Shown here in pieces: positions 10,564 through 63,844 of a stretch of DNA of 64,000 bases. The position numbers and the translations under genes were made by a program. The notes under the pieces were generated by a model, which made no database searches, was not told the DNA's origin, and saw nothing but the letters and a program-made list of their open reading frames with translations. Position 1 is the stretch's first letter; each line of letters opens with the position of its first letter. The stretch comes from an uncultured Planctomycetia bacterium (GTDB lineage: Bacteria > Planctomycetota > Planctomycetia > Pirellulales > S012-138), in NCBI GenBank assembly GCA_963809785.1, contig CAWEKV010000001.1, positions 3,464,408-3,528,407 on the forward strand. The letters run 5' to 3'.

Positions 10564-12594
10564 CTAGGGTTCTCCTTTCCAGACCTGCGCCAGGAGGCCG
10601 GGACGATGGAAACGGCGGCGGGTGGCGTCGTCGTCGATCAGCTTCAGGGTGCCCGGGTCGCGATAGGTGACGAACCGCCAGGCCCCTTCGGAACCGTCGA
10701 AGAAGCCCCTCGGGCGTGACGACCAGCCAGTCCTTGCCGGCGTCGAGGCTGTAGAGCCGGCAGCGTTCCTTGCCGGTGGCCGGGTCCCAGAGCCGGGTCG
10801 TGCCGTCCGTGGCGACGGTCCACACGTGCTTGCCGTCGCCGCTCAGGGCCACGCCCGAGACCGCCGCCGGCCTCCTGGAAGGTCTGGAGCTTCTTGGCGC
10901 TGGCCGCCTCCCACAAGTTCACTCCGGCGAGGACGTGCTTGTCGTCGCCGCTCAAGGCCACAGCTCAGGACCACCCCCGGGTAGGTCTGGAGTTTCTTGC
11001 CGCTGGCCGCGTCCCACAGGATCGCCGTCGCGTCATAGGACCCGGTGAGGACGTGCTTGCCGTCGCCGCTAAAGGCCACGCACGTGACCACGGACTTGTG
11101 CCCCTCGAAGGTCTGGAGTTTCTTGCCGCTGGCCGCCTCCCACAGGATCGCTGTGTTGTCAGCGGACCCGGTGAGGACGTGCTTGCCGTCGCCGCTCAGG
11201 GCCACGCCCCGGATGAGATTGGTGTGTCCCGCGAAGGTCTGGAGTTTCTTGCCGCTGGCCGCGTCCCACAGGCTCGCTGTCTTGTCCCACGACCCGGTGA
11301 CGACGCGCTTGCCGTCGCCGCTCAGGGCCACGCACTCGAGCTCGGTTGTCCCTGGAAGGTCTGGAGCTTCTTGCCGCTGGCCGCGTCCCACAGGATCGCC
11401 GTCTTGTCGTGTGCCCCGGTGAGGACGAGCTTGCCGTCGCGCGACAGGGTCACGCACCGGACCCGGCTGGTGTGCCCGTGGAAGTGCTGGACTTTCTTGC
11501 CGCCGGCCGCGTCCCAGAGCATCGCCGAGCTGTCCCTGGACGCGATGACGACGCGCTTGCCGTCGCCGCTCAGGGCCACGCCCGAGACCCAGGCGGTGTG
11601 CCCCTGGAAGGTCTGGAGTTTCTTGCCCGTGGCCGCCTCCCACAGGATCGCGGTGTGGTCCGATGCCTCAGAAAACTCCCCGGTGAGGACGTGCTTGCCG
11701 TCGCCGCTCAGGGCCACGCCCGCGATCTCGCCGGTGTGCCCCCGGAAGGTGCTGGAGTTTCTTGCCGCTGGCCGCGTCCCACACGATCGCCGTCTGGTCA
11801 TAGGACCCGGTGACGACGTGCTTGCCGTCGCCGCTCAGGGCCACGCATGATGATCCCGCGGTTCTCCTGGAAGGTCTGGAGTTTCTTGCCGCCGGCCGCC
11901 TCCCACAGGATCGCCGTCTTGTCTGTTGACGCGGTGACGACGTGCTTGCCGTCGCCGCTCAGGGCCACGCCCGTGACCGTGTCGGTGTGCCCCTGGAAGG
12001 TCTGGAGTCTCTTGCCTCCGGCCGCCTCCCACAGGACGGCCGTCTTGTCGGCGGACCCGGTGACGACGTGCTTGCCGTCGCCGCTCAGGGCCACGCTCGT
12101 GACCCAGTTGCCGTGCCCCTGGAAGGTCTGCAGTTTCTTGCCGCTGGCCGCGTCCCACAGGATCGCCGTCTGGTCCTTTGACCCGGTGAGGACGTGTTTG
12201 CCGTCGCCGCTCAGGGCCACGCTCGTGATCGCGGCGGTGTGCCCCTCGAAGGTTTGGAGTTTCTTGCCGCTGGCCGCCTCCCACAGGATCGCCGTCTTGT
12301 CATTGGAACCGGTGACGACGAGCTTGCCGTCGCCGCTCAGGGCGACGCTCGTGACCCAGGGTGGGTGCGCTGGAAGGTCTGAAGCTTCTTGCCGCTGGCC
12401 GCCTCCCACAGGATCGCCGTCGCGTCATGGCCCCCAGTGACGACGTGCTTGCCGTCGCCGCTCAGGGCCACACTGGTGATCCCGTTGGTGTGGCCCAACT
12501 GGAGAAACAACTCGGGTTGGGGCTCTTGCGCGGGGGCGAGGCCCTGCAAGCAGACGAGGACCAGGATGGACAGCCAGTGAGGGACGAATCGCAT
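10564..12594 (-). pseudogene. Secreted WD40 repeat protein (~14-15 near-identical blades); frame broken repeatedly
   Basis: Signal peptide MRFVPHWLSILVLVCLQGLAPAQ. Then many copies of GH...(V/I)T(S/G)VALSGDGKHV(V/L)TGS.D.TAILW(E/D)AASGKKLQTF(Q/E), read from minus ORFs 12337-, 11798-, 11322-, 10843-, 10644- and 9929-10852. C-terminal tail ..DAGKDWLVVTPEGFFDGSEGAWRFVTYRDPGTLKLIDDD..LLAQVWKGEP*, with the stop at 10564-10566. Confidence 0.8.
10850..12480. repeat. 126-bp tandem repeat array (coding; one WD40 blade per unit)
   Basis: Strings such as gtgcttgccgtcgccgctcagggccacgc and gaaggtctggagtttcttgccgctggccgc recur with a ~126-nt period across the whole interval. Confidence 0.85.
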
Positions 12595-31618: not shown

Positions 31619-32970
<1,352 letters not shown>

Positions 32971-33208
32971 TCGTGGGCCTTTGGCGCGTCATGAACCGAA
33001 CTGTTGCTGATTCTACCACGCATGCCCCGAATGCCAGTGCGCACGTCGGCCTTACGGCTCGACGCTCGCCGACTCGCTAGCGGCCCGCCCGGAACGTCTT
33101 GACCACAACGTCTTGACCCCGGCCGCCGCCGGGGGAATAATCCCCGCCCCTTCGGCCCAGGCGTCCGGCCGGGCTACCAGCCTGCCTTTCTTTACTGCGG
33201 AGTCATCA

Positions 33209-60611: not shown

Positions 60612-61066
60612 CTAGGCAGCCTTCCGCTTGGGAAGCTCGGTCTTCTTCGGCTCGCCCATCGGGGGGGCCGGTGGACCGCTCGGCGGGGCGCATCGCCCTT
60701 CATCTCAACCGAGGGAGCATAGCCGCCGCCGCAACCATGGCAGCCGTGACAACCGTGGCAACCATGACAACCGTGGCAGCCATGGCAACCGTGGCAGCCC
60801 CAGCCACCGTGGCAACCGTGGCAACCGTGGCAGCCATGACAACCGTGGCAGCCGCGACCGAACAGACCACGCAGGAAGCCGCCGCAACCGCCGCAACCGT
60901 GGCAGCCGTGGCAGCCGTGACAACCCCAACCGCCGCCAAAGCAGCCGCCGCAACCGTGGCAACCGAAGCAACCGCCAGCCTGAGCCGTGTTGCTGTCCAC
61001 CGACATGGCGGTGAAGCCAACCACGGCCAGGAACAGGGCGATGCCCAAAACCAGAACTCGATTCAT
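60612..61066 (-). CDS. Secreted (Gly-Cys-His)n repeat protein; putative periplasmic metal- or heme-binding protein
   Basis: ATG 61066 with GGAGG 8 nt upstream. MNRVLVLGIALFLAVVGFTAMSVDSNTAQA (Sec signal), then GGCFGCHGCGGCFGGGWGCHGCHGCHGCGGCGGFLRGLFGRGCHGCHGCHGCHGCHGGWGCHGCHGCHGCHGCHGCHGCHGCGGGYAPSVEMKGD. As given, the frame reads on to 60299. A 1-nt shift near 60690 gives ..APPSGPPAPPMGEPKKTELPKRKAA* ending at 60612, just before the terminator. Confidence 0.7.
60715..60975. repeat. 9-nt coding microsatellite-like array (ggY tgY caY) with synonymous variation
   Basis: The plus strand reads gtggcaacc / gtggcagcc / atgacaacc / atggcagcc repeatedly, which is the complement of GGx-TGy-CAy codons. 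Confidence 0.85.
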
Positions 61067-61594
61067 CCTAGGAACCTCCAAATACGGGTACAGGGTAACG
61101 GGATCCCGAACCTTCGGCCGTCTTGTGTTTCCGCTGCCAGCCGACGGCCGCTGCTCGCGCGGATTGGTCTGCGGACGCGCTGGAGAGGCGCTGCGGACGG
61201 TTGCCCTGTGAGAAACCGCCCGCGGTCGCCTTGCCGCGGCCGCCGTCCGGTGGTGAGAACCGCGTGGCCGGTCGCCGGCGGTCCGGCGCCTTGAGCTCGC
61301 GGGGCACAGCCGATTGGGGGAGGTGCCTTCGCGGTCAAGGAGCCGTCGCGGTCAACAAACTGTAGGTTGCGGTTGGGCGAGGAGCGGCGATCGGCGAAAA
61401 TCGTCCAGCCCGGAAGCCGCGTCCGATGGTGACGACGATGCGGGTAGTGAGGATGAATCGGAATGAAGGATCGGCGTGAAGGGTCGGAAGTCGATTTCGT
61501 GACAAAACACGCTTGGTTCGATTTGTTCGACTGACAACTCGCCGTCACGAACCGACTCCCGACCCCGTTCCCCACACGTCAAGTTCGATACAAC

Positions 61595-62118: not shown

Positions 62119-63844
62119 CTACAGCGCCTTGACGTAGACGACCTTGTCGTCGCCGGGCCCGTAGAACTCTTTCAGCACGGCCTCGCAGTGATAGCCGCAG
62201 CGTTCGTAGAAGGCTCGCGTGGGCTGGTATTGCGCACGGTTCGACGTCTCGATGTATACCCGCCGGCCGCCGGCGCCGCGGATGAGCCGCTCGGATTCCT
62301 CGAGTAGCAGCCGGCCGAGGCCGAGACGCTGGTGCCCTTGATCGACGGCAATCCAGAACAAGTCGAAGCTGCCCGCCGTGCAGGCGATGGGGCCGTAGCA
62401 GGCGTATGCGACCGGCCGGCCATTCAATTCGGCAAAGGCAAAGGAATAGCCCGATGCCTCCCCCTTGGCCAGCCGCTCTTCAACTAGCTCGACCGCCACA
62501 TCGCACTCCGCCGCGTAGAAGAAGCCGGTCGATTCGACAATTCGCCGCACCGCCGCCGGATCGGCAGTCAGGACGTCGTGGCGGAATGTCGGGCAGGAGC
62601 CAGGAGTCAGGGAACAGGAGTCAGACAACGGGCTATCCGTTTGCCTCCCCTGACCCCTGCCTCCTGATTCCTGACCTCTGCCTCCTGCCTCCTGATTCCT
62701 GCCTCCTGATTCCTGCCTCCTGACGCCCGCTTCCTCCACAATCCGCTCCATGGCATCCTCGTAGCTGATTCCCGCCCGCTGGAGCGCGGCCGTGTAGCCG
62801 GCGTCAGGGCTGAGGCAGGGGTTCGTGTTGATCTCCAGGATCCACGGCCCTCCGGCGCGGTCTACGCGAAAGTCCACCCGCACGTAGCCGCGGAGGTCGA
62901 AGACCTCCCAGCAGCGGCGGGCCAGCTCGCTGAGCCGCTCGACGAGCGGCCCGTCTTCCGGCGGAAAGTCGAATCGCCGCGGCGTCTGGTGGAACTCGAA
63001 GGAGGCGTCGTCCCACTTGGCCTCGTAGCCCACGATCCACGGCTTGCCGGCGGGGAAGGCCGAAAAGTCGATCTCCGCCGGCGGCAACGTAGTGGGCACA
63101 CTCCGTGAGCCGTGGCCGACGGCTAACGGATTGTGCCTGCCACCATCGGTCAATAGCGACAGGTTGAACTCGCGGCCTTCGATGAACCGCTCCGCGAAGC
63201 ACTCTCGCCCCAGCCGCGCGGCATGCTCCTCGACGCGGCGACGCAGCTCCTGGGCATCGGCCACGGTGACGATGGCATCGTCACCCAGCCCGAACGAGGC
63301 GTGCTCCCACACGGCCTTGAGGATGAACTGGCCAGGAGAGCTATCTCGCTCCGCAGAGGAGTCAGGAGTCAGGAGACTGGACTCAAGAGAGGCCGCGGCA
63401 CCTTGATTGCTGACTCCTGATCCCCAACTCCTGACTCCTGACCTCTGACTGCTGACCCCTGACTTTTCGACCCCGTACCACGGCGGCGTCGGCAGGCCGG
63501 CTTGCCGCAGGCGCTCCTTGGCCAGCAGCTTGTTGTTAGTGAGCCAGAGGGCCGCAGCCGAATTGCCGGTGTAGGGAAGGCCCAGCGATTCGAGCAGCGA
63601 GGGGAACACGTGCGCCAGCCGATCCCACCCGGCCAGCGACTCGACCAGATTGAACACCACGTCTGGCCGCAGGTCCACCAGCGACTCGCCGCGCGGCGGC
63701 CAGGTCCAGCGTGCAGTCCAGAGACTGGCAGTCGTGTCCGCGGCGCGAGAGGGCCGCCATCACTGCGTCGCGCTGCACCAGCACGTCCCCTTCGTCGGCG
63801 GCCGCGCCGGGCGCGACCGCGTTATGCACGACCAGCACGCGCAT
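62119..63844 (-). CDS. Fusion protein: D-Ala-D-Ala-ligase-like ATP-grasp domain + C-terminal GNAT acetyltransferase, with two hairpin-array insertions read in frame (frame change near 63690)
   Basis: MRVLVVHNAV.. (ORF 63536-63844), then ORF 62119-63678: DVVFNLVESLAGW..LPYTGNSAAALWLTNNKLLAKERL..ERFIEGREFNLSLL..YVRVDFRVDRAGGPWILEINTNPCLSPDAGY (ATP-grasp), then ..FWIAVDQGHQRLGLGRLLLEESERL..YIETSNR..TRAFYERCGY (GNAT). Confidence 0.75.
62591..62727. repeat. Intragenic hairpin array (caggagtcag / ctgattcctgcctcctg units) at the ATP-grasp/GNAT junction
   Basis: gggcaggagccaggagtcagggaacaggagtcagac .. cccctgacccctgcctcctgattcctgacctctgcctcctgcctcctgattcctgcctcctgattcctgcctcctgac. Translated as ..RRQESGGRNQEAGGRGQESGGRGQGRQTDSPLSDSCSLTPGSC.. 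Confidence 0.85.
63357..63464. repeat. Second intragenic hairpin array of the same caggagtcag family
   Basis: gaggagtcaggagtcaggagactggactc .. tgctgactcctgatccccaactcctgactcctgacctctgactgctgacccctgac. Translated as ..KSGVSSQRSGVRSWGSGVSNQGAAASLESSLLTPDSSAE.. Confidence 0.85.

Follow-up and report, generated by a model that had tools for sequence, protein, structure and literature searches.

In-frame heptamer-array hairpins in a planctomycete ATP-grasp/GNAT gene as probable tolerated copies of a dispersed repeat class

The STRR heptamers of cyanobacteria are tandem heptamers. In Xanthomonas, inverted pairs of a heptameric simple sequence repeat (GGGAATC) have been described, as have heptamer repeats in Nostoc, copy numbers in a genome ranging from tens to hundreds (Rehm et al., 2015; PMC4692102). 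These are built of one or a few G-rich units, are intergenic, and are often arranged convergently, in inverted pairs that could fold into stem-loops or cruciforms (PMC4692102). [quoted passage not shown] Intragenic RPE and REP copies are thought to persist in loops and linkers, the disruptive ones being purged (PMC10969869; PMC3733652). Here, we describe two arrays of the heptamer CAGGAGT, each paired with its own reverse complement, inside a single ATP-grasp/GNAT gene on a 64,000-nt stretch of DNA from an uncultured Planctomycetia bacterium (assembly GCA_963809785.1, contig CAWEKV010000001.1, positions 3,464,408 to 3,528,407; hereafter the window, to which all coordinates without a prefix refer). 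In the literature that we searched, translated heptamer-array hairpins in planctomycetes are not described.

The larger part of the gene is an ORF of 519 codons on the reverse strand (62119-63678 (-)), which encodes a Ddl-like ATP-grasp domain and a C-terminal RimI-like GNAT domain, as judged from the ORF list, Pfam and an alignment of homologues. In Pfam, the Dala_Dala_lig_C match spans residues 136-315 and the GNAT match residues 406-496, so that one array lies before the ATP-grasp core and the other between the two domains, the latter as proposed by a first-pass annotation made from the letters alone; its observations that the ORF crosses both arrays without a stop, and that the arrays encode GVSSQRSGVRSWGSGVSNQGAAASLESSLLTPDSSAE and RRQESGGRNQEAGGRGQESGGRGQGRQTDSPLSDSCSLTPGSC, were also confirmed. 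All NCBIfam matches of this ORF fall far under the curated cut-offs and allow no substrate assignment. We probably see here two tolerated copies of a class of dispersed hairpin repeats whose arms are tandem arrays of 6-8 nt units, and the two copies are presumably translated.

Both arrays consist of (CAGGAGT)n and its own reverse complement and can form a hairpin. In the first, which we call the loop array, the 5' arm of the mRNA (63410-63464 (-)) comprises about eight CAGGAGT-type units as delimited by Tandem Repeats Finder (TRF), encodes SGVSSQRSGVRSWGSGVS and is stop-free in all phases; it is followed by a hairpin loop (63390-63409 (-), from folding) and by an ACTCCTG-type 3' arm (63357-63389 (-)) that reads CTC CTG ACT CCT GAC TCC TCT, with TCT at the position of the in-frame TGA. 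In the second, the linker array, the 5' arm (62649-62727 (-), TRF) has about 11 units, mostly alternating CAGGAGG and CAGGAAT, and encodes RRQESGGRNQEAGGRGQESGGRGQ; the hairpin loop (62626-62648 (-), from folding) leads into a 3' arm (62591-62625 (-)) that reads TCT GAC TCC TGT TCC CTG ACT CCT GGC TCC TGC, with TGT and TGC at the in-frame TGA positions. Across the window, whose G+C content is about 66%, CAGGAGTCAG matches 19 times at no more than one mismatch, against 4.6 matches expected and a maximum of 12 in shuffled sequence, and 18 of the 19 fall inside the two arrays. TRF reports the 7-nt period at 62649-62724 (10.9 copies), 63410-63464 (7.9 copies) and 63357-63375 (2.7 copies). The folding energies of the two arrays on the mRNA strand are -66.5 kcal/mol (z -3.5) and -57.3 kcal/mol (z -4.3), with none of 200 shuffles as good. 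Both arrays are imperfect (68-85% matches in TRF), which should damp slippage, and the 5' arm of the linker array carries a 14-nt sub-period (4.9 copies, 85% matches in TRF) that indicates a likely local re-expansion.

The reading frames of the two arrays are constrained in a specific way. A stop count in all six frames finds each array open in one of the six only, the frame in use. CAGGAGT has no stop in any phase and, because 7 and 3 share no factor, every frame runs through the same seven-residue cycle, QESGVRS. Its complement, ACTCCTG, has TGA in one phase, so that none of the three frames stays open across three intact units in a row. In the 3' arms of both arrays, the would-be in-frame TGA is TGT, TGC or TCT everywhere, and the out-of-frame TGAs are kept. 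We compared five intragenic CAGGAGT 3' arms (those of the linker array, the loop array, a paralogous ATP-grasp gene immediately upstream in this genome, and both genes of the metagenome contig L013) and found a common reading, xCT GAC TCC TxT CTC CTG ACT CCT GAC TCC T(GG/CT/GC), with LLTPDS followed by W or S being encoded in the upstream paralogue and both L013 genes as well. In all five, the in-frame TGA positions hold sense codons and TGAs out of frame are preserved. Elsewhere in the genome, six of nine CAGGAGT hairpins are closed in all six frames. Within the intragenic copies, the arm without stops has about double the length of its stop-bearing partner (about 11 versus 5 units in the linker array, 8 versus 3.5 in the loop array), an asymmetry also present in L013 (8.4 versus 4.4 and 10.4 versus 4.3 units). 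From these patterns we infer purifying selection instead of chance. An intragenic copy would persist only if its net length keeps the frame, if the frame used is stop-free, and if the encoded peptide, rich in Gly, Ser, Gln and Arg, falls into a permissive, disordered segment; the stop-free arm would be free to grow, and the TGA-bearing arm would be limited to two intact units, in the sole phase that keeps TGA out of frame.

The whole 8.47-Mb genome was surveyed for similar loci by combining TRF calls with the presence of a reverse-complement partner within 250 nt. This yielded 691 unit-array hairpin loci of 86 unit types, whose arms have periods of 7 nt (733 arms), 6 nt (277) and 8 nt (197); seven of the loci, with differing units, lie in the window. 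The CAGGAGT/ACTCCTG type is represented by 12 loci, whose loops vary between copies and three of which lie within a two-gene ATP-grasp operon. Most unit-array hairpins are intergenic, and 48 are in frame within ORFs of 281-1321 aa. By a home-made codon-usage score of the locus flanks, which gives approximate frame classes, 7% of the hairpins are in frame and open, compared to 29% of random intervals, an approximately 4-fold depletion in ORFs. Among same-strand loci, 39 have flanks in the same frame with a stop and 68 have flanks in different frames, close to the 1:2 expected at the borders of tandem genes, so that this genome-wide count of intragenic and intergenic copies reveals no excess of frame-breaking ones. 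For units of 7 or 8 nt, the in-frame share follows the stop content of the unit, from 13% for stop-free units over 4% for those with a stop on one strand to none of 17 for those with stops on both.

Two further unit types in this census deserve mention. The hexamer ACGAGG is the commonest unit (109 loci; 156 loci have stop-free units whose period is a multiple of 3) and is never in frame in an ORF despite having no stop on either strand, which is not explained by unit stop content alone. In-frame AATGACG arrays, for example at C1:195016-195100 and C1:673862-673937, all read MTND(G/R)MTNDEG. This reading presupposes that units of 7 nt and 8 nt alternate (15 nt), which would hold the TGA of the unit out of frame.

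At the protein level, an AlphaFold2 model built on a 14-sequence alignment scores residues 72-113 (loop array), 185-189 (a further palindrome described below) and 331-360 (linker array) below 50 in the predicted local distance difference test (pLDDT), and the flanking domains at 80-97. In this model, both arrays sit between confidently predicted domains, in a surface loop or linker instead of the fold core, at two sites where length varies among homologues. The loop after LPTPxW has 50 aa here, compared to a median of 17 (interquartile range, IQR, 14-23) in 117 fused homologues, so that the loop array adds about 36 residues net. The linker between ATP-grasp and GNAT has 47 aa, compared to a median of 38 (IQR 34-44) in the same set, and as the array makes up nearly the whole of it, the ancestral linker appears to have been replaced. 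The linker copy would accordingly have taken the place of an older linker, and the loop copy would be a recent addition. The proposal of the first-pass annotation that disruptive insertions are purged, or the elements tolerated as Gly/Ser/Gln-rich linkers, is supported by the single open frame out of six, the depletion in ORFs, the trend with unit stop content, the sense codons at the TGA positions and the low pLDDT.

Comparison with related genes separates the histories of the two arrays. The nearest homologue, P0002 (62-69% identity), was independently assembled twice (contigs L013 from JGI and L014 from ENA), and its linker in L013 contains a compound hairpin of (GTCAGGA)x8.4, an inner (GACGCGGG)x3.9 pair and (CTGACTC)x4.4. 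In the DNA alignment of these two genes, the 5' and 3' junctions of the linker array match. In the same-genus genome G001, the 5' arm is found at the same linker junction, after which the contig diverges, which may reflect a chimeric assembly. The linker array is absent from most homologues, including P0004, which is fused and array-free and groups with the present gene, P0002 and G001 (clade support 99/98). P0002, P0004 and G001 all lack the loop array, the site of which holds a (CCCCAAC)x4.4 array in P0004 and a different repeat in G001. This last repeat (L002 1-130) translates as FVTKSTPDP, near-identical to the FVTKSTSDPS encoded by the window ORF 61063-61575, and looks like another dispersed repeat family.

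The upstream paralogous ATP-grasp gene carries a third CAGGAGT hairpin (G000:C1:3528873-3528977, locus L001), about 470 nt past the window end. Here as in L013, it occupies the equivalent loop, which is flanked by GVPTP on one side and FIKP on the other, and in L015 the same loop of the paralogue holds a (GAATTCG) array. Heptamer-like linker peptides are also found in fused homologues of other clades (P0038, P0041, P0072, P0081, P0091, P0095, P0103 and P0105), examples being GSGVRGQESGVRSQG in P0038 and, among these homologues, GTGDRGQG and HHSPLTTHHSP. This distribution suggests that the loop and linker sites have been colonised repeatedly. On the sequences compared, the linker copy is apparently old, being common to at least one other species, and the loop copy recent and specific to the present genome.

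Such retention could be read as exaptation, with the arrays being kept because they provide a flexible linker, or because their mRNA hairpins make ribosomes pause at domain boundaries or stabilise the transcript. Both arrays are indeed at domain borders, the linker array has matching junctions across species with its hairpin potential surviving, and the upstream paralogue has the same hairpin type in the same structural loop in two organisms. However, array-free homologues have linkers similar in length, P0004 is array-free within the same clade, the loop site of close relatives holds different elements or none, and the class as a whole is mostly intergenic, with other unit types in loops of unrelated proteins. 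We therefore regard exaptation as quite unlikely and favour the tolerance of dispersed copies.

The same comparisons bear on the suggestion of the first-pass annotation that the element itself mediated the fusion of the two domains. In such a scenario, a hairpin between adjacent ATP-grasp and GNAT genes would have joined them by loss of a stop codon. Separate ATP-grasp and GNAT genes, whose existence it had asked about, do occur in three relatives (G006, G028 and G031), and one CAGGAGT array of G017 coincides precisely with the C-terminus and stop codon of an ATP-grasp paralogue; the heptamer-like peptides in the linkers of several other fused homologues point in the same direction. In none of the three split genomes, however, are the two genes adjacent: the GNAT gene is on another contig (G006), far away on the chromosome (G031) or about 2 kb apart with an intervening ORF (G028). 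Each of the 120 best homologues has both domains, and their sources include Thermoguttaceae, Pirellulaceae, Planctomycetaceae and Desulfobacteraceae; fusions with the same domain boundaries are array-free in many clades. As these array-free fusions have linkers of comparable length (the medians given above), the present array did not create the fusion; for the linker, this is the very outcome that the first-pass annotation had named as refuting its reading. In the tree of split and fused forms, the split ones fall in an unresolved backbone, which gives no fusion polarity. We consider a fusion mediated by the element extremely improbable; the linker itself may or may not derive from such an element in the distant past.

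The ORF 62119-63678 is not the complete gene. Its first ~55 codons (MRVLVVHNAV...CTLDLAAARR) are found in a different frame at 63679-63844 (-), running from 63844 downwards, as established by the alignment with homologues, whose N-termini read MRxxILHNAV...CTLDL...RPDVVFNLVE. This N-terminus sits in the ORF 63536-63844, and the two frames meet near 63690 in a 1-nt break, where one missing base in GCGCGGCG would restore ...AAARR-ESLVDLRPDVVF. The upstream paralogue is itself split over three frames, with at least three frame changes in 1.1 kb. Both observations could indicate a decaying operon whose dead genes were colonised by repeats. Against this, 519 codons are open, the protein has the same residue in the more than 120 invariant columns of the 14-sequence alignment, all out-of-frame pieces of the upstream paralogue contain conserved residues, and intact array-bearing orthologues exist in short-read assemblies. 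The break near 63690 is probably an assembly indel, because the upstream gene shifts frame so often with its residues conserved throughout, because the N-terminal part of a moeA-like gene in the window is also out of frame, and because the genome is only 66.8% complete despite being in 6 contigs. That the arrays lie in pseudogenes is, in our view, very unlikely.

As to how the copies arose and spread, three CAGGAGT units (no more than one mismatch) are found in the genomes of 5 out of 41 relatives, the same-genus one alone having 124 matches, and in 8 of 301 genomes of an even sample of the phylum, with a patchy distribution. The arm variant CAGGAGT CAGGAGA CAGGAGT recurs in distant genomes, which agrees better with an element having been copied than with separate slippage events at the individual sites. 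Loci in the distant genomes G100, G068, G027 and G017 have related units, including a stop-free CAGGAGA/TCTCCTG variant, and tell nothing clear either way about in-frame use. No target-site duplication or terminal inverted repeat of fixed sequence was seen by eye at the array junctions. A link to RAYT/Y1 transposases was looked for and not found: Y1_Tnp genes are present in 34 of the 41 relatives with or without CAGGAGT arrays; in this genome, no unit hairpin was found within 2.5 kb of any of the eight Y1 transposase genes checked, other transposase families not having been tested. The copies probably originated by element copying followed by local slippage.

Several points weigh against simple tolerance under purifying selection. 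The 'mutated TGA' may partly be inherited from the consensus of the element instead of being selected in place, since some of the intergenic copies have the TGT variant unit as well, and the five intragenic arms are not independent, as orthologous copies have common ancestry. The codon-score caller cannot tell tandem-gene borders from broken genes, and the assembly is rich in indels. Moreover, the arrays are still recognisable in two species whose proteins are about 62-69% identical, and neutral tolerance alone fails to explain their retention without ongoing homogenisation. A horizontally spreading selfish element would address the last of these: CAGGAGT hairpins in which TGT or TGG at every third unit keeps exactly one frame open would colonise permissive loops and domain linkers and then be maintained by homogenisation or by selection on the mRNA hairpin. 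If true, this would explain both the linker array being kept at this level of protein identity and the occupation of the same loop in two paralogues. We hold it to be unlikely, and retain the tolerance of copies from a dispersed class of tandem-unit hairpins as the probable explanation.

Further palindromes in the window belong to this picture. The first-pass annotation had counted four intragenic palindromes, all in frame and stop-free. This stands for the three unit-array hairpins detected, i.e., the two described here and one at 31966-32044 in the moeA-like gene, to which we add a REP-like palindrome at 63095-63137 (-) (z -4.7), the third in frame in the ATP-grasp/GNAT ORF, which has no unit array. 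It does not extend to the CAGGAGT hairpin of the upstream gene just past the window end, which goes with a frame change. The left half of the REP-like palindrome, GGCACACTCCGTGnGCCGT, has about 117 copies in the genome, and the loop in which it lies holds other inserts in homologues, namely (ATGCAGG)x4.7 in P0002 and a small GGACGGATT/AATCCGTCC hairpin in G001.

The hairpin in the moeA-like ORF (31619-33019 (-), with an N-terminal part that looks frame-shifted) is of the (TTCCGAA)n type, a unit that is also read as NSEFGIQNSE within an ATP-grasp gene from a different organism (L015 532-563). The window also contains a 126-nt tandem repeat (12 copies, 80% matches in TRF) at 10975-12496. In other organisms, the gene neighbourhood is conserved (L013 952-5757 and L015 143-2871) and comprises, in this order, a lysine-2,3-aminomutase-like radical SAM protein, a CxxCxxCC protein, the ATP-grasp and the ATP-grasp+GNAT, which suggests a small-molecule or peptide ligation pathway.

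These arrays reveal no new function for the ATP-grasp/GNAT gene. Hairpin repeats, whether selfish or born of slippage, would be a steady source of disordered inserts and linkers in planctomycete proteins. The filter of selection can be followed base by base, given a 7-nt unit that produces the same cycle in all frames and a single stop-bearing phase that limits one arm. Such inserts also inflate and confuse annotation, with QESGVRS, LLTPDS, RPTSNVQ, FRIPHSAF and other peptides turning up in unrelated proteins; they show where an enzyme is permissive, and short-read assemblies break at them.

Returning to the described systems, the arrays behave like RPEs and intragenic REPs in that they are dispersed in the same genome, in frame and stop-free in a conserved gene, with some orthologues lacking them. 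They differ in build: RPEs and REPs have a fixed consensus, whereas the arms described here are tandem 7-nt arrays with many unit types, variable copy number and stops that depend on the unit. They are not related in sequence to the RPE or REP families, GTAG being absent from both arrays, and the resemblance is one of behaviour, not of membership. With the Xanthomonas type they share three or more heptamers in tandem that can pair with an array of the reverse complement close by; unlike in that type, CAGGAGT has no run of three or more G and forms no G-quadruplex, and the two copies are intragenic. The wider class differs from both the Xanthomonas and the Nostoc repeats in having about 86 unit types, periods of 6-8 nt and about 7% of its copies in frame in ORFs. 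Like MITEs, the arrays interrupt an ORF in frame, but their loops differ among copies and no transposase link was found among Y1 genes. To these systems the present case adds stop avoidance at the level of single bases, an asymmetry between the arms, an orthologous copy that has been kept in more than one species, an operon with three hairpins, and a genome-wide tie between the stop content of a unit and its survival in frame.

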